From the NCBI GenBank assembly GCA_021647705.1, contig JAKIUF010000004.1, positions 74,878 to 138,877 of the forward strand: 64,000 bases of DNA, written 5' to 3'. Position numbers and translations under genes: made by a program. Below the pieces are notes generated by a model. That model made no database searches, was not told the DNA's origin, and saw nothing but the letters and a program-made list of their open reading frames with translations. Positions 37,310 through 63,752 of this stretch are shown here, piece after piece. The number at the start of each line of letters is the position of its first letter. The first letter of the stretch is position 1. Source of the stretch: Gammaproteobacteria bacterium. Lineage in GTDB: Bacteria; Pseudomonadota; Gammaproteobacteria; SZUA-152.

Positions 37310-37361
37310 TACAATCCCATCATTGCGTTTAAAAAAAGAAACTAAAATTATTATTAATATT

Positions 37362-38991: not shown

Positions 38992-39007
38992 TGGCATGGT
39001 CTCTGCT
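38992..39007 (+). promoter_or_regulatory. candidate sigma54 promoter (-24 TGGCAT / -12 CTGCT)
   Basis: TGGCATGGTCTCTGCT has GG and GC spaced 12 nt apart, ~40 nt upstream of the STAS gene. Confidence 0.35.
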
Positions 39008-39047
39008 CTATCCCTCCAAAACAAGCAAACTATTTTTGGAGGTGGTA

Positions 39048-40219: not shown

Positions 40220-40224
40220 ACACA

Positions 40225-42027: not shown

Positions 42028-42734
42028 TGCATATCCCATCACAACACATCGAAATCGAACGAATTTACTCCCAGGTTCTCGGCGAAGGAAAACGCTCGAT
42101 AGCCATCAGTTCGGCAAACTCCGGTGAAGGTGTAAGTTCCCTTGCCCAGGCATTGGTACAACGTAATCTTCTGGCCGGTCATTCCACACTGCTGGTTGAC
42201 CTTAATTTACATCATCCTTCTCTCAGCAGCCTGCTCAAACTGGACGAATCGGAACAGGAGGCGGACCTGCTTGATAAACCACAACTGGTTACCGTACAAC
42301 AATCCATTGCATTAACCGGAGTCACTCCTCCAACCCATCGCAGTCTAGTGATGAAACTGCGCAAACCTGGCGTGCTCGAACAATATATCGCAGAGTGGCA
42401 ACAGACATATGATGCTGTAATTTTCGACACGTCACCCATTAATCGCACTAATGCCAACAATATTCCGCCAGAACGGGTTGCTGCTGCCTGTGATGGCAGT
42501 TTGCTGGTTGTGTTGGCAGGCAGTACGACCGAAGCAATGGTTTCCACCGCAGTGAATAAACTAAATGCCGCAGGCGCACAATTATTGGCTTGCATATACA
42601 ATGATCGTGATAACTCTTCCCTCAAAAGTGAATTACTCCGCGAACTTCATCGCCTGGAACCACGTTTCAGTAATATTTCTCATCGTCTCAAAAATTGGGT
42701 GCAACAGAATCAACTACTTTCTATGGAAACCTGA
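42027..42734 (+). CDS. BY-kinase-like P-loop ATPase with degenerate Walker A and A', no TM domain
   Basis: Aligns to the Wzc/CapB kinase domain, but Walker A reads SANSGEGVSS (Lys replaced by Val), A' reads LLVDLNLH (second Asp to Asn), Walker B VIFDTSP; no Tyr-rich tail. Confidence 0.6.
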   Translation: MHIPSQHIEIERIYSQVLGEGKRSIAISSANSGEGVSSLAQALVQRNLLAGHSTLLVDLNLHHPSLSSLLKLDESEQEADLLDKPQLVTVQQSIALTGVTPPTHRSLVMKLRKPGVLEQYIAEWQQTYDAVIFDTSPINRTNANNIPPERVAAACDGSLLVVLAGSTTEAMVSTAVNKLNAAGAQLLACIYNDRDNSSLKSELLRELHRLEPRFSNISHRLKNWVQQNQLLSMET

Positions 42735-42778
42735 AAAGGCGATCACTCAGGTGCCACAAAACTATTAACGGGATAATC

Positions 42779-46791: not shown

Positions 46792-47788
46792 CGCGATTGC
46801 TCCATTTTTTATTTATTAATGCGGCAACAAATTTTCTGCGGAACTTTTTCCAGCATTAACCATAATAATTTCAGGAAAGTCTTATTTCTTGATACCGCGA
46901 CGGTCTAAAATTACGATAAGATTAAATGATGCATCACCACTATTTGATGAAAAACAGTATAACGAGTTCAGCATTACAATGATATTGTACAAAAAAACAT
47001 TAAAGGCACACATTATGTGCTTTTATCTATTGAAGCTAATGAATGAACAATACTGAGAATAATTTTTGTATTCTTATTACTTAATATTGACAACCAAACG
47101 CAGATAAAACCCTGCCGTTCTTTTGCAAAACGCAAAGCAAAATAAAAAATAACTCGCACTAAAATCTCAATTTGATAAAAATATAACAACTAAGCTTTAA
47201 AAAATCTGTAAATCACTAGCCATACAAAGTATATTACAAGAAATGATTCATTGGCACGATAGTTGCTAATTTTACCTTGGGTGGGTTCCAGCCATATATA
47301 GATGCTATTAAAGAACCCCTTGGCGTTCATCATCACTAATAAAAATACTCATCATACTCAAGCATGCGTTAATTTTTTCATGCTTGGTTAAGGGTAGACG
47401 AAAAATGTAAGGACCTCCACGGAAGAAAAAAATCCTTGTATAAGCCGATTCCACCACCTTCGGTTCAGAAACTTACCTGTAATAATTCCCCTATCAGGCA
47501 TTCAGGCTTAGTCTGTAATTTTCCTAACTCACCTACTTTTGGTGCTCGTTATAATTTCCTGTTATTTTTAAGGAAAGAAAAACAGACAAGACGATAAAGT
47601 TCTAAATAAATATACAGGGAAATATTTTATTTCAAATTTTTTCATTAAAAAAATAGACGCCAAAAGCAAATGCTTTAGGCAAAAACTGGCTGAACAAAAT
47701 AATCGCAAGGATGCGGAAGGTAGGACGACTCAATAGATAAAACAAAATGGGGAAATAATTACATGCATATTTTAAAGGCAGGTATAAA

Positions 47789-50140
47789 TTGAACCTTTGC
47801 AAACACGGACAAACCCTATTGATCTATATTTCCAGATCAACCCACATACGACGGTGGCCCCTCTGGTTACAACTGGCACTGGCAATGACGATTGTTTTTT
47901 TTCTAGTCAATTTAATTGCTGCATCATTAGTCCGCTATGTGGTCAGTAATTTTGAATTCAAACAGGCGGAAGAACAAAGCCACAATTCTTTTGCGCTTTT
48001 TTCTGTCGCCATCATTGATGCTGTTATCACGGAAGATATACCCTTGATAAACACTGTTGTGGCGCGCTCTTTGGAGCGTATCCCCAACATCACGGCTCTC
48101 TCCATTGAAAGTGAGAAAGGTAAATTATTTGCCAAGCATTCACGAGAAGACACCATAATCAGCAACAATATACGTGACTACCACTACGCTATCGAGCTTG
48201 AAGGAAAGCGATTGGGCACTATTAATATCAGCTGGAATATGGCTCCGATCCAGAAAAAAATAAATCGTCATATAACCAAATTTCAATTATTTATTGCTAC
48301 TATTTTTTCTCTTTTGACCGGCCTGACAATCATACTCATACATTACCTTACCGTTCGCCCGATACATAATGCAACTCACTACCTAACTGCATTGTCAGAG
48401 AATAAACAATCTTTTCCGCTAAAAAATAGGTTCCTTACCAATCGCGAACTAGAGCTCCTCAAAATATCAGCGGACAATTTTGTCCGCATCATGCAACAAC
48501 GTGAGCACGATCTACTACAAACATGCAAAAAATTACAAATTTCCCGTGACGAAACCCTCAATGCCAACCGGGAAAAATCAGATTTTCTGGCTACGGTGAG
48601 CCATGAAATCCGCATTCCGATGAATGCTGTGCTAGGCGTTCTCAGCTTGCTTAAAAACACCTCTCTGGATAATAAACAGCTACAGTTGGTACGCACTGGC
48701 TGTGATTCTGGTGAACTGCTATTGACCATTATCAATGATATTCTCGATTTTTCCAAAATGGAAGCTGACAAATTACAATTAAAGCACACCAGCTTTAATT
48801 TACATCGACTGCTCACCAATAGCGTCGAATTGCTAAAACCACAGGCAGACCAAAAAATGCTGGCCCTCATTCTTTTTTTAGAGGCCGATCTTCCCTGTTA
48901 CGCCAAGGGAGACCCAGATCGCCTGTGCCAAATTCTAATCAACCTGATCAATAATGCCATTAAGTTTACTTCCGTCGGCAGAATCAGCATCAGAGCCTCA
49001 GCAACCTATCTTGGCAATGAAAGCTTTACCTTTCGCTGCTCTGTGCAGGACACAGGCATAGGTATTGCCAAAGACTTCCAGGCATCACTGTTTGAAAAAT
49101 TTACGATGGGAAATCAAAGCCACTCCAGAAACCATGAGGGTACCGGCCTGGGTCTGGCCATCTGTAAACACTTAGTTACTCTTATGCAGGGCAATATCAA
49201 CTTTGACAGCACACCTGGAAATGGCAGCACTTTTACATTTACCATTACACTGGGAACCGCAAACGAGCAGGAAAGCACGGATAGAACGACATTAAATAAA
49301 ATCCAAGAATTACCGACAACTAATACCCGAATTTTACTGGCTGAAGACAATCCGGCCAATCAAATGGTCATCAAAAATATTCTGGAACATGCCGGCCTGC
49401 AAGTGGATATTGCCACCAACGGCCGCGAGGCAATAGAAGCTGTACGCACCCTGCCCTATGATATTGTGCTAATGGATGTTTCTATGCCGGATATGGATGG
49501 TATCAGCGCTACACGAGAAATCCGCCAACTCCCCGGAGAAACCGGAAAACTGCCTATTGTAGCACTCACTGCTCATTCTCTGTCAGGCGATAGAGAACGC
49601 TTTATTCAAGCCGGTATGGATGATTATTTAACCAAACCCATAGACCATATTGCCACCTTGCATTGCATCGCCCGTTGGACAAAAAGCATTAACACCCAAG
49701 AATTGAAAAATGACCGTACAATAAAGCACACCAACCCATCTTCTGCCAATGCCGGGGATGGATATGTTGCCCCATTAGTCGATACAGATATACTACAACA
49801 GTTGGTATATGACACTTCACCAGAAATCATAACTGAATTGTTGACGCTGTATATTAATGATGCCCGTAAACGAATAAAGAAAATACAGGCTGCAATAACA
49901 ACGCCTGATTTCAACATTTTGGAATTTGAAAGCCATACCCTGAGTAGTAGTGCTATCACCCATGGCAACCTTAAACTCCATCACCTTGCGAAAAAAATTG
50001 AACAATTTTGTCAACGGGGTGATTATGAGAAAGTGCTCACATACGCCAGCTCGCTGTCAGCACTTGCGAATGAGTCCTTTATTTCATTAGAAAAATATCG
50101 GTCTACGATAAAGGTGGGACAGGAATCGCCCGAATCTTGA
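47789..50140 (+). CDS. hybrid sensor histidine kinase (two TM periplasmic sensor, HisKA, HATPase, REC, Hpt)
   Basis: H-box ATVSHEIRIPMN; G-boxes DTGIGI/GTGLGLAI; REC ILLAEDNPANQ...LMDVSMP; C-terminal Hpt ESHTLSSSA. Confidence 0.9.
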   Translation: MNLCKHGQTLLIYISRSTHIRRWPLWLQLALAMTIVFFLVNLIAASLVRYVVSNFEFKQAEEQSHNSFALFSVAIIDAVITEDIPLINTVVARSLERIPNITALSIESEKGKLFAKHSREDTIISNNIRDYHYAIELEGKRLGTINISWNMAPIQKKINRHITKFQLFIATIFSLLTGLTIILIHYLTVRPIHNATHYLTALSENKQSFPLKNRFLTNRELELLKISADNFVRIMQQREHDLLQTCKKLQISRDETLNANREKSDFLATVSHEIRIPMNAVLGVLSLLKNTSLDNKQLQLVRTGCDSGELLLTIINDILDFSKMEADKLQLKHTSFNLHRLLTNSVELLKPQADQKMLALILFLEADLPCYAKGDPDRLCQILINLINNAIKFTSVGRISIRASATYLGNESFTFRCSVQDTGIGIAKDFQASLFEKFTMGNQSHSRNHEGTGLGLAICKHLVTLMQGNINFDSTPGNGSTFTFTITLGTANEQESTDRTTLNKIQELPTTNTRILLAEDNPANQMVIKNILEHAGLQVDIATNGREAIEAVRTLPYDIVLMDVSMPDMDGISATREIRQLPGETGKLPIVALTAHSLSGDRERFIQAGMDDYLTKPIDHIATLHCIARWTKSINTQELKNDRTIKHTNPSSANAGDGYVAPLVDTDILQQLVYDTSPEIITELLTLYINDARKRIKKIQAAITTPDFNILEFESHTLSSSAITHGNLKLHHLAKKIEQFCQRGDYEKVLTYASSLSALANESFISLEKYRSTIKVGQESPES

Positions 50141-50741
50141 CGATTGTGCCGCTTGCCACCTTCGATATCCAAAAAATAAATAGAAACCTTGAGCTTATGT
50201 GCTTTCTTAAGTTTCTCGTTATCAAGCAAAAGGTTGTCGCCTTTGCCCAAAACATGGTTTTCACTGTGTTTTTCTGTACAAATAGAAACCCAAGAGACTT
50301 CTTGACAGGACTCATTACCCGATCTTGAAAAAATAATGATGGCTAAAGAATGCCCATGTTCCTGAATATTCCCTTGCGACACCAGCTTTTCATATTACCG
50401 ATAAAACTCACCATTACTTGCAAAATGCAAAGCAAATTGAAAATTTGTACCTTTTCAATATTTCGACCTATAAGGGAAACCGCTAAACCAATCAGTATTA
50501 TCCCGAAAAACACTAACAATGCTCCACCTGCTTCTGATCGTCCCCGCGCTGCATAAAAAGCAACCACCCATGCGTGTAAATTCCGTATTTTTCTGTGTTC
50601 CCGAACAAACCAAAGGAAAGCTGAGCATTTATTGTACACTTTCAATGCAGGCCAAATAATTATAGGAACCCATTGGCATGATCATTGCTGACATATTCAA
50701 AAGACCTGTTCCAGTTATTGGCATGTCACGAGGGAACCTCT

Positions 50742-51140
50742 ATGTTTTTTATCGCAAATAAGAAAAAAGTGCTCATTATCGATGATGACCCCAGTCTACA
50801 ACGACTACTGCATGCTCGCCTGGAAAGGCACGAGAATGTAAAGATCATAAAAGCAATGGATGGAAAAAACGGTCTTATACAGGCCAGCCTCCATAATCCT
50901 GATTTAATCATCCTGGACTGGATGTTACCGGACATCCAGGGGATTGAGGTTCTTGAACGCCTCAAATGCGAAAGAAAAACAAAAAACACCCCGGTATTAA
51001 TGCTCACTGGGTGCAATAAAACCGGTAACATCGAAGATGCTTTTTATCTTGGGGCTGATGCTTACCTCACCAAAACTGCTTCTTTACAGATATTAGGAAA
51101 GAAAGTCGATGAAATGCTGAGTTCATCCCGTTCGTATTAG
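50742..51140 (+). CDS. single-domain response regulator receiver (CheY-like)
   Basis: KKKVLIIDDDPS...LIILDWMLPD...LTGC...DAYLTKT. Confidence 0.8.
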   Translation: MFFIANKKKVLIIDDDPSLQRLLHARLERHENVKIIKAMDGKNGLIQASLHNPDLIILDWMLPDIQGIEVLERLKCERKTKNTPVLMLTGCNKTGNIEDAFYLGADAYLTKTASLQILGKKVDEMLSSSRSY

Positions 51141-51396: not shown

Positions 51397-54300
51397 ATGC
51401 CAGAGTCTCAAATGCTATGGTTGCCTCAGTACTTGCCGTTCAATAGAAAGATATCTTTCCAAAATAAAAGTCTGCGAGAAGCGTTTCTACAAAATGTATT
51501 ATTGACCCGGTTACTGGAGCCGTTTGAAAACATGCGCAATACATTAACTAATATATTCGCAACAAAGACAAGTAATACCAGTAGCCAAATTCCCACATCC
51601 CTGACTGTGGGGATTTTACTCGTCTGTGTGATGCCTTTTGTGCTCACACTTCTAGGTATGGATTTCGGGACTCGTGGTATACCCGTTGATCATTCATGGG
51701 CACTACAAGCGCCAGAATATGATGTGATTGATGCCCAGTTTCGCGCACTGTCCGGTGCCTTTACCCACACGCTACTGGAATGGAGTGCATTCTGTGTGGC
51801 AACCTTCGTGGTATTTCTGGCTTTCAGCCACTACAAAATCACCCATGATGTCACCACTCCTATTATTGGTGTCGCTTTTTTCATGGCAGGCTGCATGGAT
51901 GCTTTTCATACTTTGGCGGCAGACCGACTATTCGATGCAGTAGCAGACAACCACGACCTGATTCCTTTTACTTGGGCTATTTCCCGTTTGTTCAGCGCAC
52001 TCATTATGATCATTGGTGTGGGCATTGTGTTATTCCGCAACCCGGAAACCAATAAAAAACCCGGTTTTGGTTTTGTTATCGGCATCAGTCTGCTTTTTGG
52101 AATAGCTGCCTATATCATTATTCATATTTCCGCCACATCCACCCAACTGCCACAAACAACTTACCCTGATGCTATTTTAACACGACCATACGATGCCTTA
52201 CCGTTGGTACTGTTTGCTTTTGCCGGGTTAATAATATTTCCCCGCCTGTATAAACGTCATCCAAGTTTGTTCGCTTATACGCTCATTATCAGTGCAGTAC
52301 CGGAAGTTATCACCCAGCTGCATATGACTTTTGGCTCCACAGCACTGTTCGATAATCATTTTAATATCGCCCATTTTCTGAAAATCGTTGCCTATACCGT
52401 TCCTCTCATTGGCCTGACCCTGGATTATATCCGTGCTCAGCAAACATTGCAGCTGGAAATCGCAGAACGCATGGAAGCAGAAAGTGCATTAAAAATCATC
52501 GAAACCCGTCAGCGTACTATTCTGGAAACAGTGGCTGATGCCATCATCACTATCAATAAAAAAGGCATCATTCAAACATTCAATCCCGCTGCTGAGAAAA
52601 TTTTCGGTTACCCTGCTGCCGAAGCGTTAGGGAATAATATATCCATGCTTCTGCCGGAAAAAGAACAAAAGGAACACGACTGCTATGTCATAAATTCTCA
52701 ACTACATTCTCCCCGCATTTTCAATCAAGACCGTGAGCTACAAGGGCGACGTAAAGATGGTTCTCTATTACCGCTGGAACTCAATATCGCACCAATGAGA
52801 CTAGAGAAAGAACAAGGATTTGTTGGCGTCCTGCGTGATATCACTGAACGTAAAAAAAATGAAAGTGCGTTACAAAGTGCGATAGAAAAAGCCGAGGCGG
52901 CCAGTCAGGCCAAATCTCTTTTTTTAGCGACCATGAGCCATGAAATTCGTACTCCGATGAATGCTGTATTAGGCATTCTTGGCCTGCTCAAGGAAAGCAC
53001 TCTGAATAACCAACAGCGGCATTTAGTACACACGGGTCGTGAATCTGGTGAACTGCTGCTGACAATTATCAATGACATCCTCGACTTTTCCAAAATGGAG
53101 GCTGACAAGCTGCAATTGGAGCACACTTGTTTTGATCTTCATCGCTTACTGACTAACAGTATTGAGCTGCTCAAACTACAGGCTGAACGTAAAGGGCTTA
53201 TCCTTGAACTGAACCTCGATTCAGACTTGCCACGGTATGCCAAAGGTGACCCGGACCGGCTACGCCAAATTTTGCTCAAACTAGGTAATAATGCGACTAA
53301 ATTTACCCGCGATGGCCGGATTAACATTAGCGCCTCCGCTGCTCGCATTAATGATACAGCGTTCACCCTCCACTGTACCGTACAAGACACGGGCATTGGT
53401 ATTTCCCAAGAACACCAAGCTACCTTGTTCGAAGAATTCACAATGGCAGACCAGGGACACACCAGAACCCACGAAGGAACGGGACTGGGACTCGCCATTT
53501 GTAAACGCCTGGTCTCACTCATGCAGGGCAGTATTAACATGAGTAGTGAAGCTGGAAAAGGCAGCCTCTTCTTCTTTGATGTGAAGCTCGAATTGGCAAC
53601 AGAACAGGAATGTGGCAACGCACAAGCAATAATGAAACCACAGCAACTGCCTCCAACCAATACACGTATTCTGTTAGCAGAAGATAACCCCGCTAATCAG
53701 ATGGTGATCAAAAATATCCTGGAATCTTCTAACTTGCGAGTCGATATTGTTGCCAACGGTCGTGAAGCCATTGAGGCCGTACGCCATCTACCTTACGACA
53801 TCGTACTAATGGATATTTCCATGCCGGAAATGGATGGCATAACAGCGACGCGGGAAATTCGCCAACTCCCCGGAAAAATGAGCAAACTTCCCATTATTGC
53901 TCTTACCGCTCATTCACTCTCAGGGGATAAAGAACGCTTTCTTGCGGCAGGCATGGATGAGTACCTGAGCAAACCCATAGACCGCGCCGCCATGTTACAC
54001 TGCATCGCCCACTGTATCGGTAAAACCATAGAACAAAAAACCATCGAACAAAAACCTCAACCAGACTCAGTGATACCACAACCCAACACACCTCCTGCCA
54101 ATACCACAGATAATCATATGGATCCGTTTGTAGATGAAAGTGTACTGCAACAACTGACGCACGACACTGCCCCCGAAATCGTTCCTGGACTACTGATGTT
54201 TTACATCGAGGATGCCCGCAAGCGGGTAGAACAAATCCAGAATGCCATCATAAAAAAAGATATTGAAGCCCTGGAATTTGAAAGCCATACATTAGGCAGT

Positions 54301-54495
54301 AGCGCTGCGGCTCACAGCAACGCAAAACTGTGCGCTCTGGCACGAAAAATAGAATGTCTTTGCCAGGAAGGTGCCTATCAACAAGCACTATCGGAAGCTG
54401 CGTCGTTATCATCCATTGCCAATGAGTCTTTCCGTCAGCTGGCAGAGCGTGCCAACAAGAAATTTGAAATAACCAATAAAGAAGAAAAAACATGA
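51397..54495 (+). CDS. hybrid sensor histidine kinase (about 8-TM N-terminal domain, PAS, HisKA, HATPase, REC, Hpt)
   Basis: Multi-TM N-terminal ~340 aa; PAS LETVADAIITINKKGIIQTFN; H-box ATMSHEIRTPMN; REC plus Hpt ESHTLGSSA; C-terminal 600 aa about 70% identical to the 47789 kinase. Confidence 0.9.
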   Translation: MPESQMLWLPQYLPFNRKISFQNKSLREAFLQNVLLTRLLEPFENMRNTLTNIFATKTSNTSSQIPTSLTVGILLVCVMPFVLTLLGMDFGTRGIPVDHSWALQAPEYDVIDAQFRALSGAFTHTLLEWSAFCVATFVVFLAFSHYKITHDVTTPIIGVAFFMAGCMDAFHTLAADRLFDAVADNHDLIPFTWAISRLFSALIMIIGVGIVLFRNPETNKKPGFGFVIGISLLFGIAAYIIIHISATSTQLPQTTYPDAILTRPYDALPLVLFAFAGLIIFPRLYKRHPSLFAYTLIISAVPEVITQLHMTFGSTALFDNHFNIAHFLKIVAYTVPLIGLTLDYIRAQQTLQLEIAERMEAESALKIIETRQRTILETVADAIITINKKGIIQTFNPAAEKIFGYPAAEALGNNISMLLPEKEQKEHDCYVINSQLHSPRIFNQDRELQGRRKDGSLLPLELNIAPMRLEKEQGFVGVLRDITERKKNESALQSAIEKAEAASQAKSLFLATMSHEIRTPMNAVLGILGLLKESTLNNQQRHLVHTGRESGELLLTIINDILDFSKMEADKLQLEHTCFDLHRLLTNSIELLKLQAERKGLILELNLDSDLPRYAKGDPDRLRQILLKLGNNATKFTRDGRINISASAARINDTAFTLHCTVQDTGIGISQEHQATLFEEFTMADQGHTRTHEGTGLGLAICKRLVSLMQGSINMSSEAGKGSLFFFDVKLELATEQECGNAQAIMKPQQLPPTNTRILLAEDNPANQMVIKNILESSNLRVDIVANGREAIEAVRHLPYDIVLMDISMPEMDGITATREIRQLPGKMSKLPIIALTAHSLSGDKERFLAAGMDEYLSKPIDRAAMLHCIAHCIGKTIEQKTIEQKPQPDSVIPQPNTPPANTTDNHMDPFVDESVLQQLTHDTAPEIVPGLLMFYIEDARKRVEQIQNAIIKKDIEALEFESHTLGSSAAAHSNAKLCALARKIECLCQEGAYQQALSEAASLSSIANESFRQLAERANKKFEITNKEEKT

Positions 54496-55889
54496 GCGAT
54501 AAACCAAATGTACTTTTAGTGGAGGATGCAAAACCCCAGGCGGTACTCTTCCAGCAATATCTGAAAAATGAAATGATTAACCTGACCCATGTTGCTACAG
54601 GAGAGGATGCCAAGACAATCATTGCCACAAACCCACCTGATTTAATCCTGCTCGATCTTAAATTGCCGGATATGGAGGGACAGGAAATCCTGCGCTGGAT
54701 AAAACAGGAAAAGTTTCCCACATCTGTCATTATCATCACCGGCCACAGCTCAGTGGATGTTGCTGTAGATGTTATGCGCATCGGCGCAGAAGACTTTTTG
54801 GAAAAACCGGTCACTGCAAGCAGACTACAAATAACTGTCAGAAATCTGCTGGAACGGTCCCGCCTGCAACATTTAATTGATGACTACCAGAACACATTTG
54901 ATCGTCAACGCTACCACGGTTTTATCGGTTACAGTCTACCCATGCAAGCGGTCTACCGTATTATCGATGCCGCTGCTCCCAGTAAAGCTACCGTATTTAT
55001 TACGGGTGAAAGTGGTACTGGCAAAGAAGTTTGTGCCGAAGCAATCCACGCACAAGGCACCCGTGCCGAACACTCCTTTATCGCATTGAATTGTGCGGCC
55101 ATTCCCCACGACCTGATGGAGAGTGAAATTTTTGGGCACATTAAAGGTGCCTTTACTGGAGCTTCTGCCGAACGTAAGGGTGCCGCTTTACTTGCTAATG
55201 GCGGTACTTTATTTCTGGATGAAATTGGCGAAATGGATCTGGATCTGCAAACCAAATTATTGCGATTCATCCAAACCGGCAGCTTTCAAAAAGTTGGTGG
55301 CAGTAATCTGGAAAAAGTTGATGTGCGCTTTATTTGTGCCACCAACCGCGATCCACTGGAAGATATCGCTGCCGGACGCTTTAGAGAAGACCTCTACTAC
55401 CGGTTACATGTCGTTCCTTTGCATTTGCCACCTTTACGCGAACGTGGTGACGACATCATAGAAATTGCCCAGCACTTCCTGATTGCCTATGCGCAGGAAG
55501 AGGGCAAAGGGTTCACAACATTCACCCCTGAGGTCGAGGTTATTCTTCGTCGTTACAATTGGCCAGGAAATGTGCGCCAGCTACAAAATGTCATCCGTAA
55601 CATTGTCGTTCTGCACGATGAAAAATCCGTCACTCTGGCTCACCTTCCAGCACCACTCAACACGTCATTAAACAATCTGGAAATTTCTCATCTAACGCAA
55701 CCATTACAACAAACGGAGGCGACAGACAATCTCAAACATGCGCCAATAAAACCATTAGCCAGCGTCGAGCGTGATGTTATTGAACGAGCGATTAAAATCT
55801 GTGATGGCAATATCCCAAAAGCTGCCGCTCTGCTTGAAGTGAGCCCTTCAACAATATATCGGAAAAAGCAGGGTTGGGAGTCAACCTGA
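54492..55889 (+). CDS. sigma54-dependent NtrC-family response regulator (REC, AAA+, HTH)
   Basis: GESGTGKE Walker A; GAFTGA sigma54-contact motif; C-terminal Fis-type HTH; 4-nt overlap with the upstream kinase. Confidence 0.9.
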   Translation: MSDKPNVLLVEDAKPQAVLFQQYLKNEMINLTHVATGEDAKTIIATNPPDLILLDLKLPDMEGQEILRWIKQEKFPTSVIIITGHSSVDVAVDVMRIGAEDFLEKPVTASRLQITVRNLLERSRLQHLIDDYQNTFDRQRYHGFIGYSLPMQAVYRIIDAAAPSKATVFITGESGTGKEVCAEAIHAQGTRAEHSFIALNCAAIPHDLMESEIFGHIKGAFTGASAERKGAALLANGGTLFLDEIGEMDLDLQTKLLRFIQTGSFQKVGGSNLEKVDVRFICATNRDPLEDIAAGRFREDLYYRLHVVPLHLPPLRERGDDIIEIAQHFLIAYAQEEGKGFTTFTPEVEVILRRYNWPGNVRQLQNVIRNIVVLHDEKSVTLAHLPAPLNTSLNNLEISHLTQPLQQTEATDNLKHAPIKPLASVERDVIERAIKICDGNIPKAAALLEVSPSTIYRKKQGWEST

Positions 55890-56834
55890 TTTACGGCATT
55901 GCATAACATCGAAACTTATAGCTTCGGAGCGATCAATAAACATCTGCAATCCCTGGGCTAAGGTATACTTAGCCGTTACACCTAAAGCCTGTTGCGCATA
56001 ACCAGGATCGCCAACTGATACACGTATATCACCTTTGCGTGTTGATTGGTATACAACCGGTACTTGCAGTGCGGTAATCGACATCACTGTTTTTGCAAGC
56101 TGATTGATCGTAACAGCCTCACCAGTACAAACATTAAATACAGTGGGAGTGCGGTTTATATTTTTCATGGAGACACATAAAAACCGCACAACATCTCCAA
56201 CATAAATAAAGTCACGAGTCTGTTCTCCATCACCAAAAATAGTCAACGCCTGATGATTCATGATCCGATCCACAAAAATTGAAATAACGCCCGAGTAGAA
56301 TGAGGCAGGGTTTTGACGTGGTCCATAGACATTAAAGAAGCGCATACCCGTGGTGGGAACACCATGTACTAATGATGCAACTTGCGCATGCAATTCCGAA
56401 CCAAGTTTATCGGCCCCGTAGGCTACCAGAGGGCTTACCGCCGAACTTTCCTTCAAGGGAATATCGGCATTATCACCATAAACTGCGGCGGACGAGGCAT
56501 ACACCACTGGTATTCTTTTTTCTTTGGCCGCATCAAATACGTTAATTGTGCCAGTCAAGTTTACCTGATGAGTGCGAACCCAGTCTTCATTGGATTGTTG
56601 TACTGAGGCAATAGCCGCAAGGTGGAAACACCCATCCATATCTCGCATACAGTGACGAACCGTTTCACTGTCAGCAACATCTCCCGTAATAACTTCACAT
56701 TGAGGTGGAACATTCTCCATCTTACCGGTGGAAAAATCATCAAGGATACGTACCTGATGACCATCCTTCAGCAGACTTTCAGCCAAGTGTGAACCAATAA
56801 AACCACAACCACCGGTAACCAGATAATTTGCCAT
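55881..56834 (-). CDS. NAD-dependent nucleotide-sugar epimerase/dehydratase
   Basis: Start taken at MANYLVTGGCGFIGSHL (Rossmann GxxGxxG); YASSAAVYG catalytic region. Confidence 0.8.
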   Translation of the reverse strand: MANYLVTGGCGFIGSHLAESLLKDGHQVRILDDFSTGKMENVPPQCEVITGDVADSETVRHCMRDMDGCFHLAAIASVQQSNEDWVRTHQVNLTGTINVFDAAKEKRIPVVYASSAAVYGDNADIPLKESSAVSPLVAYGADKLGSELHAQVASLVHGVPTTGMRFFNVYGPRQNPASFYSGVISIFVDRIMNHQALTIFGDGEQTRDFIYVGDVVRFLCVSMKNINRTPTVFNVCTGEAVTINQLAKTVMSITALQVPVVYQSTRKGDIRVSVGDPGYAQQALGVTAKYTLAQGLQMFIDRSEAISFDVMQCRKSG

Positions 56835-56867
56835 TTTATACACTCTCTTTAATTTAGGTATTTGATA

Positions 56868-56950
56868 TTAATTAATCACTGAAAACATACCGGGATACGG
56901 TATTTTCAGTAACTAAAGTGCGAAAGAAAGATTTAGCCCTTAATTCACAC
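56868..56950. repeat. degenerate MITE fragment (terminal-repeat-like end plus CTGAAAATACCG hairpin)
   Basis: TTTAGCCCTTAATTCACA at 56931-56950; cactgaaaacataccgg..cggtattttcag resembles 32620-32640. Confidence 0.45.
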
Positions 56951-57227
56951 CTTACCTGCACGATAGGCAAGCGGCATGCCAAGCTAAAATAAGCAGGATT
57001 CAGGTTGTTTTTCAGAATACTGGAGAATGGTAGGCGACACTCTGCATTGCACTTTGCGGCAGTAGGTGTCGATTCTTGCAATCTGCACCCTTTAATAATG
57101 CGCATTAATATCACAATATCGTTAATTTAAGCGAAGTTTTCTGCATGTTACAAATAATCGGTAAGCTTGCTGTCCCCAACAGCGTTGATATTAATATTTT
57201 ACCCTGATCGATTTACGCAAATAAAAA

Positions 57228-57243
57228 CGGCATCAATATTGCA
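57228..57243 (+). promoter_or_regulatory. candidate sigma54 promoter (CGGCAT-N5-TTGCA)
   Basis: GG and GC spaced 12 nt apart; -12 element TTGCA exact; 30 nt upstream of the GT4 gene start. Confidence 0.45.
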
Positions 57244-57272
57244 GCTATATCTATAAAAAAATAAGGATTGAC

Positions 57273-58289
57273 ATGGAACAAAAAAATAACGGTATCTGGA
57301 TTTTATTGGATAGCCGAAAACCGGGTGGTATCGAATCCCATGTACTGCAATTGGCCAGGGGATTACATAACCATAATAAAAACGTAACTGTGGTCTTTCT
57401 TACTCACTATGGGAATCATCCATTGCGCGTTGACCTTCAGCAGTTTGGCATCAACACCCTCTGTCTGGATGGGCGTATCACCACGTTGTGGAGAGAAATA
57501 CAAAAAGCACAACCGTTGATTCTTCACACACACGGTTACAAAGCGGGAATTTTGGGTCGCATTGTCGCCATGTTCTGTAAAATTCCGGTTGCATCCACAT
57601 ATCATGCTGGTGAAGTTTCATCCGGAAAAATGAACATATATGACTGGCTGGACCGGAAAACCGCTTGCCTTGCTTCCAGTGTCTTTGCCGTTAGTCCACA
57701 AATTGCACAACGTTTACCTGTCAATGCTAAGGTGGTTGATAATTTTGTTGATTGTAATCACCTGAAAATGTCGAACGGACAGCAAATTGCTTTTGTGGGA
57801 CGACTTAGCTCAGAAAAAGGCCCCGATTATTTTTTGAGATTGGCCAGTCGATTTCCAGAATGCCATTTCCATGTTTATGGCGATGGACCACAGACAAAAG
57901 AACTAAAAATCTCTGCATCCGGAAACCTCTATTTTCACGGCCAACAGCATGACATGACATCGATCTGGCCCCGGATTGGGCTTCTGGTTATGCCTTCACG
58001 TCACGAGGGTATGCCCATGGCAGCACTGGAAGCGATGGCTCAAGGCATTCCGGTACTGGCTTCCCGCATCGGAGCACTCGACCAACTGGTCGATACCAAC
58101 AGCAATGGTTGGTTGGTAGCACCAGGAAATGATGATGAGCTGGCAGACCGTTTGCAATTATGGCTTAGCATGAGTGAACAGAAAAAATATTTATTCAAAC
58201 AGGCTGCAAGGCAAACAATCTTGCAACGTTTTTCTGCCGATATCGCCATACCGCAACTCATCTTCAACTACGGGCAGATCGCAAGCTGA
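57273..58289 (+). CDS. glycosyltransferase family 4
   Basis: EGMPMAALEAMAQGIPVLASRIG is the GT4 motif. Confidence 0.8.
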   Translation: MEQKNNGIWILLDSRKPGGIESHVLQLARGLHNHNKNVTVVFLTHYGNHPLRVDLQQFGINTLCLDGRITTLWREIQKAQPLILHTHGYKAGILGRIVAMFCKIPVASTYHAGEVSSGKMNIYDWLDRKTACLASSVFAVSPQIAQRLPVNAKVVDNFVDCNHLKMSNGQQIAFVGRLSSEKGPDYFLRLASRFPECHFHVYGDGPQTKELKISASGNLYFHGQQHDMTSIWPRIGLLVMPSRHEGMPMAALEAMAQGIPVLASRIGALDQLVDTNSNGWLVAPGNDDELADRLQLWLSMSEQKKYLFKQAARQTILQRFSADIAIPQLIFNYGQIAS

Positions 58290-58387
58290 TTGCAATCTGC
58301 GAAGCAAACCAGAAAAACATACTGATAAAAATAATATTTCTTATTATTTTTCGATGAAAATCAATTAACAAACCTCATTACAGCGCT

Positions 58388-58403
58388 TGGCTCGTCTCTT
58401 GCA
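58388..58403 (+). promoter_or_regulatory. candidate sigma54 promoter (TGGCTC-N5-TTGCA)
   Basis: 11 of 12 consensus positions with correct spacing; ~137 nt upstream of the next glycosyltransferase. Confidence 0.45.
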
Positions 58404-58539
58404 AACCCTTTGATTACAGAGCATTTAGCCATTCAGGGTATCCGTATGCAATTACATCATATCAACCACCAGAGTATCGTCCTTACCTTTTTTCATCATT
58501 GGGCCGCACACGAAACAAATACCCCAATAAGGTCACATT

Positions 58540-59691
58540 ATGCGCTCTAAACGCCACTTACTGGTTATCGATCCCATCGCTTTCACAGGTGGATCAAAAA
58601 TTGCCACCGAAAATATTTTACGCCTACTCGATAGCGAACAAATACGCATCACTATTCTGACAGCAGATGCCGACTCATGGCATTGGCCACAACTAAAACG
58701 AGTGCGCCTGATTGAACCCAAATGGCTATCCCGGCAGGAACAAGGCATTCCTTATTTCCTGCGCCATCTGTTCATTGCCTTTCAACTGATGTTGACACGC
58801 TTACGTTTTGGTCGATTAGATATTACTATGGGCGCGTCAGGTCCCGGAGTTGATCTGGCACTTTATTTGTTAAAACCTGTTTTGGGATTTTGTCTTGTAC
58901 AATTAATACATGGCCCGGTTGCCCGTTCTCGCACTATTGCCCGCTGTCTACACGCGGCGAATGAAGTTCATTATTTAGAAAGTACGGCCGCTTCCCTGAT
59001 TGATGCACTACACACGCTTACTTCTACACAACATAAACTCACAGCACCCCATTTTCAAATCATGCAAAATGGTCTACCCGGTCATGCTTGGCCAAGCCGC
59101 TGCCAAAACAAGCGTCCTGTTATTTTCTGGGCTGCTTCACTACTGAAATGGAAGGGACTGGAAACGCTGCTCGATGCATTAAAACTTCTTGAAACCGGGA
59201 CACGCCCCGACACTCATATCTGTTATATACGACCTCAAAAAAACCCACTGCCAATAAGTGATGCCCCAGTGACACTTGATGCGGTGTACTGGCATGAAAA
59301 TCCTGTGCATCTGGATAAAATACGTGCCACCGCTAATATCTTCGTTTCCACCAGTCATCATGAACCCTTTGGTCTTTCCATACTGGAAGCCATGGCGGCG
59401 GGTCACTGTATATTGATCCCCGCAGATGATGCCTACTGGGATCGCACTCTGAAAAACAATATCAACTGTATCAAATACAGCCCGGGCGATACGATGGATC
59501 TGGCCAACAAGCTACGTTCTCTCAGTTGTGACATGGAACGCATCCGAAACCTGGGAAGTGCTGCCGCCAAAATAGCTTGTCACTATCGCGCTGAAACCCG
59601 ATACGCCACAATTAAAAATTCCCTGCAAGGACAAATAACGTCTCAAGAGAATGGGCAAACCACCCAGGCAAATACGGAAAATATTCCATGA
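58540..59691 (+). CDS. glycosyltransferase (GT4/GT1-like)
   Basis: HHEPFGLSILEAMAAGHCILIP is the E..7E-like motif. Confidence 0.7.
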   Translation: MRSKRHLLVIDPIAFTGGSKIATENILRLLDSEQIRITILTADADSWHWPQLKRVRLIEPKWLSRQEQGIPYFLRHLFIAFQLMLTRLRFGRLDITMGASGPGVDLALYLLKPVLGFCLVQLIHGPVARSRTIARCLHAANEVHYLESTAASLIDALHTLTSTQHKLTAPHFQIMQNGLPGHAWPSRCQNKRPVIFWAASLLKWKGLETLLDALKLLETGTRPDTHICYIRPQKNPLPISDAPVTLDAVYWHENPVHLDKIRATANIFVSTSHHEPFGLSILEAMAAGHCILIPADDAYWDRTLKNNINCIKYSPGDTMDLANKLRSLSCDMERIRNLGSAAAKIACHYRAETRYATIKNSLQGQITSQENGQTTQANTENIP

Positions 59692-61121
59692 TTCATCAAC
59701 TACGCCGTTTGCCTGATGGATTAAAACAGGCCATCCTTTACGGCACAAGCATTGCGCTGATGAAGGGAGTATCACTGCTGATGCTGCCATTTATTGCCTA
59801 CCATTTGTCACCAGAAGAATTCGGTCGGCTTGAGGTCATCAGCACCTTCGCCATTATCGGCAGTATCCTGGTAGGCATGGGCATGGAAAATACCTTATTC
59901 CGCTTTGCTGGAATGTCACGTAACGCCAAAGATCGTCAACGCCTGGCCGCAGAAATTTTTACCCTGACCTTGATTATCGGCAGTACCGCTTGGCTTATCG
60001 GATGGTTTGCAGCGGAATTAATCGCCAGCTGGATACCGGGCAACCCCAGTCCCTATGAACTGCGACTGGTAATCTCAATGCTTGCACTAGAAGGATGTAT
60101 TTCCATCCCGCTTGGCTGGCTGCGTATGCGTAACCGAGCGACCCATTTTTTTCTTGCCACAGTCGGGCGCGCGCTAGCTCAGGCATTACTTGTTGTTATT
60201 TTATTAAATCTCGACAGAGGCGTGGAAGGTGTGTTGGAAGCAGGCCTGATAGCCGCTGTAGTGCAAGCACTGATACTCAGCTATCTGCATATTCGTGATA
60301 CCGGATTCGGCCTTAGTCGCACAACAGGGGTTCGCACACTTATTTATAGCCTTCCCCTTGTCGGCAGTGGCCTAGTGGCGTTTGCATTGAATGGTTTGGA
60401 TCGCTGGATTCTAGCGGACTATGCCTCCTTGACCGATGTAGCCCAGTTCGCTGTCGCCGCTAAATTTGCATTAGCGGTGGTGTTACTGCTACAACCCTTT
60501 GGCATGTGGTGGTTACCACGCCGTTTTGAGGTCATTAATGAACCTGACGGACATAAAAAAGCTGCTCATTTTATTGCACTGGGCATTGTCCTGGCTTTGA
60601 TTATCACAGTATTAGTCGGCCTTAGCTCCCCTCTACTGATAAACTGGTTGCTGCCCGACAGCTATGCCACAGCCAGTCAATATGCAATCGGACTAGTACT
60701 GGTTATGTTGCTCAAGGAAATGGCCGAGATGATCAACCCAGGGTGTTTCATTGGCAAAACTACCGGCACCCAGCTGCTTATCAATACTATTGGGGCCATT
60801 GTCGGCATTGTCGGCATGCTCTGGTGGACACCTGATTATGCTGTATGGGGTATTATCTTTGCGCTGCTGTCAGCGCAAGCTCTCCGTCTGCTGTTATTCT
60901 TCATTGCCAGTCAATATTTTTTACCATTACCCTATCCCGCCCGCTCACTGCTGATAATAATGATAATCAGTAGTGGCTGGTTAGCGCTAGGTTCTCAGGT
61001 CTCTACTATTGGGCAACAACTGCTGCTTATTACAGCAGCGATGATTACCCTGTTAGCAACCTCCCTACTACTCAAACTTATCCCGCTACCTAAAATGGCA
61101 GCAAAAAAAGTGTTCTCGTGA
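59688..61121 (+). CDS. polysaccharide flippase (Wzx/MOP superfamily)
   Basis: 477 aa; about 12-14 TM helices; start overlaps the upstream GT stop. Confidence 0.75.
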   Translation: MIHQLRRLPDGLKQAILYGTSIALMKGVSLLMLPFIAYHLSPEEFGRLEVISTFAIIGSILVGMGMENTLFRFAGMSRNAKDRQRLAAEIFTLTLIIGSTAWLIGWFAAELIASWIPGNPSPYELRLVISMLALEGCISIPLGWLRMRNRATHFFLATVGRALAQALLVVILLNLDRGVEGVLEAGLIAAVVQALILSYLHIRDTGFGLSRTTGVRTLIYSLPLVGSGLVAFALNGLDRWILADYASLTDVAQFAVAAKFALAVVLLLQPFGMWWLPRRFEVINEPDGHKKAAHFIALGIVLALIITVLVGLSSPLLINWLLPDSYATASQYAIGLVLVMLLKEMAEMINPGCFIGKTTGTQLLINTIGAIVGIVGMLWWTPDYAVWGIIFALLSAQALRLLLFFIASQYFLPLPYPARSLLIIMIISSGWLALGSQVSTIGQQLLLITAAMITLLATSLLLKLIPLPKMAAKKVFS

Positions 61122-62533
61122 TGGTTTTGGGCACCCAATGCCGATCCACTCAGATACTGCTGACACTGATTTTATGTCTGTTGATCGGCATTTTATGGAA
61201 ATTAATCCCACATCCGGCTGTGGCTATTGCCATCGGTTTGTTTCCTATCGCAATATTATTCACACTACACCAGCCTTTCCTGATAGTTTTATTGTTTGTA
61301 ATTTTTTCCTTCTTCCGCATTCATGAAGTCTTTCCACAACTCTACGATTTAAAAATCCCCTTATTACTCTCCATAGCCTCACTGGGTGCATTAAGCTGGC
61401 ATATCGGGCTGACACAAAAAATTAAAGCCTGGTGGTGCCCGGAACTCTCTGCCATGTCAGTGTTCTTTGGACTGGTATTGCTTGGCACTTTAATGGCCAG
61501 CAACATCCCCATCGCCATAGAGTATTTCAAAAACATCTATTGGAAAATTATCGTAATGACCTTTGCCATCGCCTGGCTTGCCTCCACCGCCCAGGATTTT
61601 TCCCTAGCCTCTAAACTCATTACATTCTCCGGCATGCTGGTCGGCTTAGTCGCCCTTTCCAACAAGATTAATGGTATCGGCCTAGTGGAAGAAACACGAG
61701 TCACCATCGGTCGAAATATTGGCTCGGTTTTGGGTGATCCTAATGATCTGGCTCTGGTATTAATGCTACCTGTTGCCTTTGCTATCAGCTTGGTCATGAC
61801 AGACAGCATGGGACGCTTCACCAAATTCTTCGGTTTGTTCAGTATGCTGGTGCTTTTTTTTGCGATAATTGCTACTCAAAGTCGAGGAGGCCTTCTCGGC
61901 ATCATGGCAATATTCGGAGTTTACGGTTATCGTCGTATTCAATCCAAAGCACTGTTTTTCAGCTTTGCAGGGATAGCCGCCATTGCGCTTTTTGTACTTG
62001 CCGACATCTCAGGCCGTGCCTCGGGTGGTGCCGCAGAAACAGGCATTGATGCCTCATCCATGGGTCGCTTGTATGCCTGGGAAGCTGCATATGGGATGGC
62101 GCTGCACAACCCCTTTAGCGGTGTCGGCATTAATAATTTTTACGCTAACTATTTTTCCTACAGCCCGCATTGGGATGGACGCAATCATGCCGTACATAGT
62201 ACCTGGTTCGGCGTACTGGCCGAAACCGGTTTTCTGGGGCTCATCGTCTTTGTCACCGCCATCGTCATGCTGGTGAAAACATCTCTTCGTTCCCTGTATC
62301 GTATCGAACAAAACCTCAACCAGGTTGATCCCGCAATACATGCCACAGCACAAGCAGTACTGGCAGGCCTGTTAGGCACAGTGGTTTCCGCCACATTCCT
62401 GACTCAGGGGTTTACCTGGCCAATCTACATTCTTGCCGCGCTGGTGATAGCTATTGCTCGATGGGTGAATTTACATCTTCCTCCAATACCGGTAACAAAA
62501 TCGCCCCCACATAATATCAATCCTAATAGGTAA
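61118..62533 (+). CDS. O-antigen ligase / Wzy-like polymerase family membrane protein
   Basis: Multi-TM; IATQSRGGLLGIMAI and a periplasmic loop typical of the Wzy_C domain. Confidence 0.7.
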   Translation: MMVLGTQCRSTQILLTLILCLLIGILWKLIPHPAVAIAIGLFPIAILFTLHQPFLIVLLFVIFSFFRIHEVFPQLYDLKIPLLLSIASLGALSWHIGLTQKIKAWWCPELSAMSVFFGLVLLGTLMASNIPIAIEYFKNIYWKIIVMTFAIAWLASTAQDFSLASKLITFSGMLVGLVALSNKINGIGLVEETRVTIGRNIGSVLGDPNDLALVLMLPVAFAISLVMTDSMGRFTKFFGLFSMLVLFFAIIATQSRGGLLGIMAIFGVYGYRRIQSKALFFSFAGIAAIALFVLADISGRASGGAAETGIDASSMGRLYAWEAAYGMALHNPFSGVGINNFYANYFSYSPHWDGRNHAVHSTWFGVLAETGFLGLIVFVTAIVMLVKTSLRSLYRIEQNLNQVDPAIHATAQAVLAGLLGTVVSATFLTQGFTWPIYILAALVIAIARWVNLHLPPIPVTKSPPHNINPNR

Positions 62534-62539
62534 GGAAAT

Positions 62540-63487
62540 ATGCGTACCAACAAACAACCGTACACACAACCATTATCAATTCTGATCATCGATGATTCCA
62601 GCAGTGAGCGCATACTACTGGGAACCATATTGAGAAAACAAGGGCATGCGGTAACAGAAGCCGCTATTGGTCTTCAGGCACTTACGCTTCTCTCTGATCA
62701 ATCAAAAATATTTGATCTTATTTTTCTGGATGTTCGTATGCCGGGCATAGATGGTTATGAAACCGCACGGCGTATTCGTGCCATTGAAAAAGAACAATCC
62801 GAAGAATGGTGTCCAATTATTTTTCTCAGCGGACAAACCAATCCTGAAAATATTGCTGATGGTATTGCTGCTGGCGGTGATGATTATTTGGCAAAGCCCG
62901 TCAACTCCATTGTATTAAATTCCAAAATAGCCGCTATGCAACGTATTGCTGATATGCGACAACAACTGCTCATATCCAATCAACAGCTGGAAGTGCTGGC
63001 GCATACGGACGAGCTAACACAACTGCCGAACCGTCGCCATTTCCTTGGCATACTCGATTCCGAACTGGCGCGAGCGCGACGCCACAATACGCCACTCTCA
63101 ATTGCCTATATGGACCTGGATCATTTTAAAGAAATCAACGACACACACGGCCACGAAGCTGGAGATGCTGTATTATTGTCCGTTGCCAAAGTGCTTTCCA
63201 AAAACTTGCGTATCGAAGACAGTATAGGCCGTATTGGTGGTGAAGAATTTTGCATTTGTTTACCGGGTGCAGATACAGCCCATTCTTTAGAACCCTGTGA
63301 ACGATACCGCTCACTCATTGAACGTTTAAAAATCCCAATGTCTTCTCAAGTATTAACCGTAACGGCAAGCTTCGGGCTGACCAGTATTCTCCCTGATTCA
63401 GATGATTCCACTCGCCTGCTGGCACGCGCAGACGAAGCCCTTTATCAAGCCAAACAGCATGGGCGCAATTGCATCGAAGTTATTTAA
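62540..63487 (+). CDS. response regulator with GGDEF diguanylate cyclase domain
   Basis: REC (ILIIDDSSSE...IFLDVRMPG); GGEEF active-site motif RIGGEEFCI; RxxD-like I-site region. Confidence 0.85.
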   Translation: MRTNKQPYTQPLSILIIDDSSSERILLGTILRKQGHAVTEAAIGLQALTLLSDQSKIFDLIFLDVRMPGIDGYETARRIRAIEKEQSEEWCPIIFLSGQTNPENIADGIAAGGDDYLAKPVNSIVLNSKIAAMQRIADMRQQLLISNQQLEVLAHTDELTQLPNRRHFLGILDSELARARRHNTPLSIAYMDLDHFKEINDTHGHEAGDAVLLSVAKVLSKNLRIEDSIGRIGGEEFCICLPGADTAHSLEPCERYRSLIERLKIPMSSQVLTVTASFGLTSILPDSDDSTRLLARADEALYQAKQHGRNCIEVI

Positions 63488-63752
63488 GGAATGATTATCA
63501 ATTAAACCCACTCTTTAAAAACTTATTTGCAAAGCGCACAGCAGTTTGCAAATTATCCATTATTGCAACCCTCCCACCCCGAAAACAATCGGTAACTTAT
63601 TGTTTTTGTTGAGCTATTAAAACTGGCCCGTTCCCTGCAATACCTTTCGTGAATAAACACAAAATATACCGACATGGATGGATTTTCCGAAGTGCGCAAT
63701 GAACCATCAACTTCACAAATCCCGTTAGCATTGGGCCATTAATATGATAAAT

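Follow-up and report, generated by a model that had tools for sequence, protein, structure and literature searches.

A probable syp-type exopolysaccharide locus with a SypG-like activator and a set of candidate sigma-54 promoters in an uncultured gammaproteobacterium

Which control system governs a cluster of exopolysaccharide (EPS) genes that has a hybrid histidine kinase and a sigma-54-dependent regulator lying among them? The question is raised by a 64,000-nucleotide stretch of DNA from an uncultured marine gammaproteobacterium (contig JAKIUF010000004.1, positions 74,878 to 138,877 of the forward strand, assembly GCA_021647705.1), which we call the window throughout. A first-pass annotation, made from the letters alone, had likened its kinase and regulator to the PrsK/PrsR systems of exosortase loci and had pointed to three -24/-12 promoter sequences in front of polysaccharide genes. 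Here, we conclude that the region from 38.9 to 64 kb, together with approximately 7 kb beyond the window, is very probably a syp-type (syp/scv/rbd) biofilm EPS locus, in which a SypG-like activator would switch on at least seven sigma-54 promoters. The locus family is already known and widely reported, and what we describe is no new kind of system.

The regulator has each of the parts by which NtrC-type activators are recognized. Pfam assigns it Response_reg, Sigma54_activat, AAA_lid_14, and HTH_8 domains, the GAFTGA motif and a Walker A motif (GESGTGKE) are readable in the translation, and matches to solved structures agree, so that the first-pass assignment to the NtrC family, with a receiver (REC) domain, GAFTGA, and a Fis-type helix-turn-helix, holds. 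NCBI names the protein only "sigma-54 dependent transcriptional regulator." Its best NCBIfam model, aligned over the full length, is that of LuxO (NF041946), at 661 bits against an equivalog cutoff of 800, and its best solved structure is LuxO of Photobacterium angustum (PDB 5EP0, E = 4e-144). The NCBIfam model of NtrC gives 384 bits against a cutoff of 558.6. Regulators of Vibrio syp/scv loci likewise stay below the LuxO cutoff, at 599 to 611 bits. Full-length identity to the Vibrio syp-locus regulators is 53 to 55%, and a neighbor-joining tree of the REC-AAA+ region, which carries no support values, places the clade of the window's regulator as sister to them, with LuxO outside. On this evidence, the regulator belongs among the NtrC-type enhancer-binding proteins, on their LuxO/SypG branch. 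Homologues number in the thousands; the closest (75 to 98% identity) come from uncultured Gammaproteobacteria, metagenome-assembled genomes (MAGs) of Ectothiorhodospiraceae, Thiodiazotropha, and Sedimenticola, and those of Psychromonas and Moritella are approximately 70% identical.

The same scores bear on the resemblance to PrsK/PrsR, under which the kinase and regulator would be the PEP-CTERM/exosortase two-component pair controlling the EPS locus. Both systems place a sigma-54 two-component pair beside EPS genes, and the regulator aligns over its full length with the PrsR model (TIGR02915), but at 356.3 bits it misses the cutoff of 502.6 and lies below its own score for generic NtrC, and Vibrio SypG scores about the same against this model (368 to 369 bits). 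The kinase, moreover, is built differently, with MASE3-PAS, REC, and Hpt domains, and its 25 best NCBIfam hits do not include TIGR02916. The first-pass annotation had itself seen no exosortase in the window, and we found no exosortase domain in the open reading frames (ORFs) scanned there or, farther out, in the 7-kb continuation of the locus. The gene order is that of syp, and we give the PrsK/PrsR reading almost no credence.

The syp-type reading rests on that gene order and on the nearest characterized relatives of the regulator. Translated searches (tblastn) show the window's genes to be collinear with four Vibrio loci (L001, L003, L004, and L005), in which STAS, OmpA, Poly_export, and SypD genes lie upstream of the regulator and GT4, glycosyltransferase (GT), flippase, and Wzy genes lie downstream; these are syp/scv loci, not luxO loci, and their regulators are SypG/ScvE orthologues. 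The window's GT4 protein is 38 to 42% identical to the product of the gene that follows sypG in the Vibrio loci. Past the window's end, the locus can be followed on a Logan contig (L092), which matches the final 1,461 bases of the window at 100% identity and goes on to genes for Hexapep, GT, a 487-amino-acid (aa) protein, GT4, GT2, and Bac_transf. The 487-aa protein, at the SypO position, has no Pfam hit in L092, and its orthologue in the related locus L081 has a faint Wzz hit. Window and continuation together run in the sypA-to-sypR order, as reportedly listed by Yip et al. 2005. Both the gene set and the order of syp/scv/rbd loci are present, as judged from Pfam domains, L092, and tblastn.

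Close relatives repeat the arrangement. Ten related loci were compared; among the relatives returned by a scan of genome contigs with chosen peptide patterns of the regulator, identity did not exceed 60%. Most of the ten have STAS, OmpA, Poly_export, SypD-like, and HATPase_c_2-REC-SpoIIE genes upstream and a reverse-strand epimerase gene followed by GT4, GT1, flippase, Wzy_C, and REC-GGDEF genes downstream, and the STAS-to-SypE order is matched as well in L088, L090, and L091. The epimerase keeps its position in L081, L084, L089, and L090; in L091 it is still divergent from GT4, but several genes stand between it and the regulator. Among the carriers of this module are Psychromonas aquimarina, Thiodiazotropha, and Ectothiorhodospiraceae MAGs.

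Is the locus also built to be read by sigma-54 RNA polymerase? The three sequences of the first-pass annotation, at 38992, 57228, and 58388, are all present with GG-N10-GC spacing, and, as it had stated, they precede the STAS/export operon, the GT4 gene, and the GT/flippase/ligase operon (gene assignments from Pfam). The matrix scan that it had suggested was run on both strands, with a sigma-54 position weight matrix that approximates the published consensus, and gave the three scores in Table 1. The promoter set of the annotation was nevertheless incomplete, as four equal or better sites, 47252(+), 50674(+), 56981(-), and 63624(+), had been missed. Between 38490 and 64000 (25.5 kb), seven hits reach 15 bits or more against 0.44 expected, a sixteen-fold excess, and none does so between 1 and 38489. 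The expectation is a mean taken over 200 simulated versions of this stretch (first-order Markov model), of which none reached seven and the highest reached three. Six of the seven hits are in intergenic DNA, which makes up 3,450 bases (13.5%) of the stretch, and each of the six is aimed at the next gene. As a positive control, the Vibrio loci were scanned with the same matrix; sigma-54 sites came up ahead of sypA and of later operons, including one at the gene junction that corresponds to 58388 (in L005, for example, at 12575).

Scanning the related loci with the same matrix (relatives at 75 to 84% regulator identity) showed the promoter classes recurring at the same gene junctions. Orthologues of 38992 precede the STAS gene in L091, L087, and L086; the 50674 promoter is kept before the single-domain REC gene in L081, L084, L082, L090, and L086; and 56981(-) is kept in L081, L084, L089, L090, and L091. 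The 57228 site reads CGGCAY-N5-ATTGCW in five loci (the window, L084, L089, L090, and L091), all retaining the nonconsensus leading C. Five relatives keep 58388, and L081, L084, L089, and L090 keep 63624. Sites are thus present and conserved at the sypA (38992), sypI (58388), and sypM (63624) positions, where they would act as promoters.

We consider it very unlikely that the -24/-12 matches arose by chance in AT-rich intergenic DNA and that the operons are read from sigma-70 promoters. It is true that GG-N10-GC matches are common and that the score of the weakest site, 57228, is reached by approximately 3.5 random hits per 25 kb; however, the excess of high-scoring hits was matched by none of the simulations, the orientation and intergenic placement of the sites are consistent with function, and the sites are conserved across relatives although the flanking intergenic DNA has diverged. 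Sigma-70 consensus scans of the three intergenic regions named in the first-pass annotation gave nothing above chance: there was no match in 56840-57280 (epimerase-GT4) and none on the plus strand of 58285-58545, and a single plus-strand match approximately 400 bp upstream of the sypA-like gene is at chance level.

A 13-bp element of the form TTGCA-N3-TGCAA lies upstream of every intergenic sigma-54 site, at a distance of approximately 100 bp at most of them. This was the outcome of a search for upstream activator sequences (UASs), again a check that the first-pass annotation had proposed, and the boxes found are palindromes of the type TYGCA-N3-TGCRA. Exact matches to TYGCANNNTGCRA number three in 64 kb, against 0.6 expected, and all lie 98 to 256 bp upstream of sigma-54 sites. 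Conservation extends to these elements. Before the STAS gene, the window, L091, and L087 share TTCGCAWTCTGCRA at -99 to -101; L081, L084, L082, and L090 have a perfect or near-perfect box upstream of their equivalent of the 50674 promoter; and the element CTGCATYGCAWTTYGC of the enhancer region shared by 56981(-) and 57228 is kept in L084, L089, L090, and L091. Six loci (the window, L081, L084, L089, L090, and L091) have ATTGCARTYTGCRA at -97 to -102 before the GT gene that follows GT4, and the pair TYGCAAAGCGCAC-AGCAGTTTGCAAA after the GGDEF gene is nearly identical in the window, L081, L084, and L089 and related in L090. Boxes and sites have thus been kept where the DNA that separates them has changed, and phylogenetic footprinting supports all three candidate promoters of the first-pass annotation. 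A sequence like the integration host factor site, WATCAANNNNTTR, was seen by eye between box and promoter, in perfect form before sypA in L087 and L086 and not in the window.

The enhancers given for SypG, TTCTCANNNTGMDWN, and LuxO, TTGCAWWWTGCAA, in PMC10162802 (which cites Ray et al. 2013 for SypG) allow the boxes to be compared with those of Vibrio. Each control site in the Vibrio loci has a TTCTCA-N3-TGAGAA palindrome 63 to 85 bp upstream that matches this SypG UAS. In the window, one-mismatch matches to the same UAS occur at 38891 and 58289 and, upstream of the additional promoters 47252 and 50674, at 47164 and approximately 50429, the box at 38892 being among the elements one mismatch away, and none within one mismatch occurs at 57228 or 63624. 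Where Vibrio has the half-site TCTCA at -63 to -85, the window has T(C/T)GCA at approximately -100.

Could the regulator, then, be a true LuxO quorum-sensing regulator whose primary target is a Qrr-like RNA, for example from 47252, with the EPS promoters secondary? LuxO is its best NCBIfam and PDB match, it shares with Vibrionaceae LuxO the REC-AAA+-helix-turn-helix architecture and, by analogy, a predicted phosphorylation through Hpt, and its boxes are of the LuxO TTGCA-N3-TGCAA type, one of them (TTGCAAAATGCAA) perfect. The C-terminal helix-turn-helix reads GNIPKAAALLEVSPSTIYRKKQ in the regulator's clade and GNVLNAAVLLELSPSTVYRKKQ in Vibrio SypG; the former (GNIPKAA..VSPSTIYRK) presumably resembles V. 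harveyi LuxO more than it does Vibrio SypG. No ORF of more than 53 aa occurs in the 0.5 kb (to 47788) behind the 47252 promoter, the best in the window, and V. fischeri SypG itself also reads the LuxO sites at qrr1 and can drive qrr1 (PMC10162802). Yet the regulator misses the LuxO equivalog cutoff, no luxU or other stand-alone Hpt gene was found in the window, Hpt being fused to both kinases (Pfam), and no qrr was found there. A scan of the whole window at Rfam gathering thresholds returned neither Qrr nor any other family, a permissive scan (E up to 10) of 46700-47900 returned only chance-level matches, and the fold of 47278-47460 is no better than that of shuffled sequences (z = -0.08). The predicted targets are protein-coding EPS operons, and the regulator sits in, and is conserved with, syp gene order in the ten relatives. 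We regard the LuxO reading as improbable. The 47252-47788 segment may represent a long leader, or else an RNA that lacks annotation.

Several observations weigh against the syp-type reading. The regulator is nearly as close to LuxO as to SypG (58% identity to P. angustum LuxO over the REC-AAA+ region, 58 to 61% to the Vibrio syp-locus regulators), and the tree that parts them is the one without support values. The frequencies in the sigma-54 matrix only approximate the published consensus. One of the seven high-scoring hits, TGGCAGACCGTTTGCA at 58141-58156(+) with 15.1 bits, falls within the coding sequence of GT4, 247 bp ahead of the 58388 promoter, and L081, a 96% relative, is the only locus to share it; at least one such hit may therefore be chance, the alternative for this one being an internal promoter. 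Boxes with at most one mismatch are not enriched across the window (14 found, 13.7 expected), so the case for them rests on placement and conservation; six of the 14 fall within the 3% of the window that lies 40 to 320 bp upstream of the sites (binomial P ~2e-6). The Vibrio half-site TCTCA is not used in the window's boxes, and syp membership therefore rests on context, not on enhancer sequence. Finally, no sigma-54 site was found at the sypP position in the L092 continuation, a promoter position at which the locus differs from V. fischeri syp, and rpoN is not in the window.

Table 1. Genes, candidate sigma-54 promoters, and enhancer-like boxes of the probable syp-type locus (window coordinates)
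Feature	Coordinates	Strand	Details
Box TCGCATTCTGCGA	38892..38904	+	100 bp upstream of 38992; exact TYGCANNNTGCRA match
Candidate promoter, sypA-like, TGGCATGGTCTCTGCT	38992..39007	+	16.3 bits; ~40 bp before probable ATG 39048
Predicted sypA-E-like operon	39036..44320	+	STAS to SypE-like
STAS	39036-39404	+	Pfam
OmpA-like	39404-40219	+	Pfam
Poly_export/SLBB	40225-42027	+	Pfam
SypD-like	42027-42734	+	235 aa; Pfam/synteny
SypE-like, HATPase_c_2-REC-SpoIIE	42695-44320	+	Pfam
LuxO-box-like TTGCAAAACGCAA	47123..47135	+	129 bp upstream of 47252; one mismatch to TTGCANNNTGCAA
Sigma-54 site TGGCACGATAGTTGCT	47252..47267	+	18.5 bits, best in window; 537 bp before hybrid kinase 1
Hybrid histidine kinase 1, HisKA-HATPase_c-REC-Hpt	47789..50140	+	Lineage-specific sensor domain; Pfam
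LuxO-type box TTGCAAAATGCAA	50418..50430	+	Perfect; 256 bp upstream of 50674
Candidate promoter before REC/kinase/regulator genes, TGGCATGATCATTGCT	50674..50689	+	17.3 bits
Single-domain response regulator	50685..51140	+	Probable ATG 50742; Pfam Response_reg
SypF-position hybrid kinase, MASE3-PAS-HisKA-HATPase_c-REC-Hpt	51397..54495	+	1032 aa; Pfam, NCBIfam
SypG-like (LuxO-related) sigma-54 enhancer-binding response regulator	54492..55889	+	465 aa
NAD-dependent sugar epimerase/dehydratase	55881..56843	-	Divergent from GT4 gene; Pfam
Candidate epimerase promoter TGGCATGCCGCTTGCC	56966..56981	-	15.5 bits
Shared enhancer region CTGCATTGCACTTTGCGG + TTGCAATCTGCAC	57040..57088	+	Boxes 57047/57076, between divergent 56981(-) and 57228(+)
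Candidate promoter, sypH-like, CGGCATCAATATTGCA	57228..57243	+	12.8 bits, weakest
GT4 glycosyltransferase, SypH position	57273..58289	+	Pfam
Box TTGCAATCTGCGA	58290..58302	+	98 bp upstream of 58388; exact match
Candidate promoter, sypI position, TGGCTCGTCTCTTGCA	58388..58403	+	15.8 bits
Predicted operon GT1-flippase-Wzy_C-REC-GGDEF	58540..63487	+
GT1	58540-59691	+	Pfam
Flippase	59688-61121	+	Pfam
Wzy_C polymerase/ligase	61118-62533	+	Pfam
REC-GGDEF diguanylate cyclase	62540-63487	+	Pfam, NCBIfam GGDEF
Boxes TTGCAAAGCGCAC + AGCAGTTTGCAA	63527..63551	+	63527/63539, at -97/-85 from 63624
Candidate promoter, sypM position, TGGCCCGTTCCCTGCA	63624..63639	+	15.2 bits; precedes Hexapep-GT-(487 aa)-GT-GT-Bac_transf operon leaving the window

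What would such a locus respond to? The TGA of the SypF-position kinase overlaps the ATG of the regulator as ATGA (54492-54495), in keeping with the first-pass view that the regulator is translationally coupled to the multi-transmembrane/PAS hybrid kinase upstream of it. The single REC gene upstream of this kinase is nearly constant in the relatives, although it was not called in L087 and a truncated gene at the contig end takes its place in L089. From the 50674 promoter, the kinase/regulator operon appears to be autoregulated. Among 5.8 billion proteins, the kinase 1 sensor domain has a single homologue, a fragmentary one, and the 47252 promoter consequently has no orthologous upstream regions for comparison. 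This part of the locus also varies between close strains, given that 96%-identical L081 has an insertion sequence element (rve transposase and HTH_Tnp_1, L081 4052-5595) in the place of the window's genes for kinase 1 and a 772-aa protein. That protein (44473-46791, minus strand), encoded between the SypE-like gene and kinase 1, has a lipoprotein-like N terminus (LLSSCGG) and no Pfam domain; relatives carry at its position a gene for a VanZ/CBM_11 protein and a divergent REC gene.

In the working model that we infer for phosphotransfer partners, box binding, promoter activity, and operon extents, one or both adjacent hybrid kinases, sensing through MASE3-PAS or the lineage-specific domain, would autophosphorylate and relay phosphate from His to Asp to His, via their own REC and Hpt domains, to the REC domain of the regulator, in which alignment points to D55 as the putative acceptor. 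The phosphorylated regulator would bind the TYGCA-N3-TGCRA boxes, which resemble the LuxO box more closely than that of Vibrio SypG, approximately 100 bp upstream of the promoters (130 to 260 bp at two of them). It would then oligomerize and, by ATP hydrolysis and its GAFTGA loop, open closed complexes of the sigma-54 holoenzyme at seven or more promoters. From these, 38992 would drive the sypA-E-like export and partner-switch operon; 47252, kinase 1; 50674, the REC-kinase-regulator genes, as positive feedback; 56981(-), the epimerase; 57228, the GT4 gene; 58388, the GT-flippase-polymerase-GGDEF operon; and 63624, the sypM-R-like operon. A second, posttranscriptional layer appears to be encoded in the locus as a SypE-like kinase/phosphatase that would act on the STAS protein, and the REC-GGDEF protein would supply an input of cyclic di-GMP (c-di-GMP).

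This model resembles what is known of V. fischeri, in which SypG is the activator of the four sigma-54 syp promoters, with the STAS protein SypA under the control of SypE (PMC3843225). Shared with that locus are the gene order from STAS to Bac_transf, a LuxO-related sigma-54 response regulator placed downstream of an Hpt-bearing hybrid kinase, a SypE-type RsbW-REC-PP2C protein with its STAS partner, and, in the window as candidates, sigma-54 promoters at the sypA, sypI, and sypM positions, all three having an enhancer-like palindrome 60 to 100 bp upstream. Relative to V. fischeri, the window has additional candidate promoters (at the REC-kinase-regulator genes, the second kinase, the epimerase, and the GT4 gene) and additional genes (REC-GGDEF, the epimerase, the single-domain REC, and the 772-aa protein), and its kinase senses through MASE3-PAS. 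The REC-GGDEF gene, not known as part of the V. fischeri syp locus, is the conserved last gene of the GT-flippase-Wzy operon in the clade (L081, L084, L089, and L090), and its place there suggests that the sigma-54 regulon of the locus extends to a c-di-GMP output.

The scv locus of V. parahaemolyticus, which the sigma-54 regulator ScvE activates, and the rbd locus of V. vulnificus belong to the same family, and scv-homologous loci are reported in 28 aquatic genera, among them members of groups other than Vibrionaceae (Chromatiales, Alteromonadales such as Psychromonas, Oceanospirillales, and others; PMC8941931). Unlike the window, in which all three positions are filled, scv lacks orthologues of SypE, SypF, and SypM (PMC8941931). 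The host differs too, as it is an uncultured gammaproteobacterium, and near relatives of the window's proteins occur in a hydrothermal-vent metagenome.

Outside the locus, the first 36 kb of the window holds housekeeping genes (aspS, nadA, kdsB, lpxK, msbA, exbB, comEC, and lolCD-like). Divergent from the STAS operon, on the minus strand at 36617-38489, are genes for a PAP2 phosphatase and a GT4/GT1 glycosyltransferase; the matrix scan gave no sigma-54 site directed at the latter. This glycosyltransferase is 26 to 29% identical to the product of the gene at the sypI position of the Vibrio loci, and a sypI-like gene may therefore have relocated. Upstream of the pair, 34680-36264 encodes a membrane protein of 360 aa with a rhomboid domain, and a small ORF of helical-repeat-like type comes next. 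Among the housekeeping genes, a low-GC patch at 18642-20421(-) has adjacent genes for an AAA_21 ATPase (368 aa) and a DUF4276 protein (254 aa), which look like a small defense or toxin-type cassette, and 9593-10321(-) encodes a predicted RNase that combines an NYN domain with an RNA-binding OST-HTH/LOTUS domain. G+C content per 2-kb interval ranges from 36% to 58%, with highs at 26-32 kb (comEC/lol) and lows at 36-38 and 46-48 kb, which suggests a mosaic origin for parts of the region.

What the locus may say about the ancestry of LuxO is a more speculative matter. Outside Vibrionaceae, syp-type loci could be run by a regulator with a LuxO-type DNA-binding helix and boxes, and both the LuxO-Qrr switch and the Vibrio SypG box could have come from such an ancestral EPS regulator. 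We hold this to be unlikely; if true, it would account for the ability that V. fischeri SypG retains to read LuxO boxes at qrr1. In its strongest form, the 47252 promoter, with its 0.5-kb ORF-free transcript, would make a Qrr-like regulatory RNA. For the organism itself, the syp-type reading gives an unannotated locus of an uncultured gammaproteobacterium its correct name and a testable regulon map of seven predicted promoters with boxes. For the family, it describes a non-Vibrio branch of syp-type loci with LuxO-like boxes, apparent autoregulation of kinase and regulator, and a c-di-GMP synthase gene, which would be useful for comparing how the SypG and LuxO circuits diverged.

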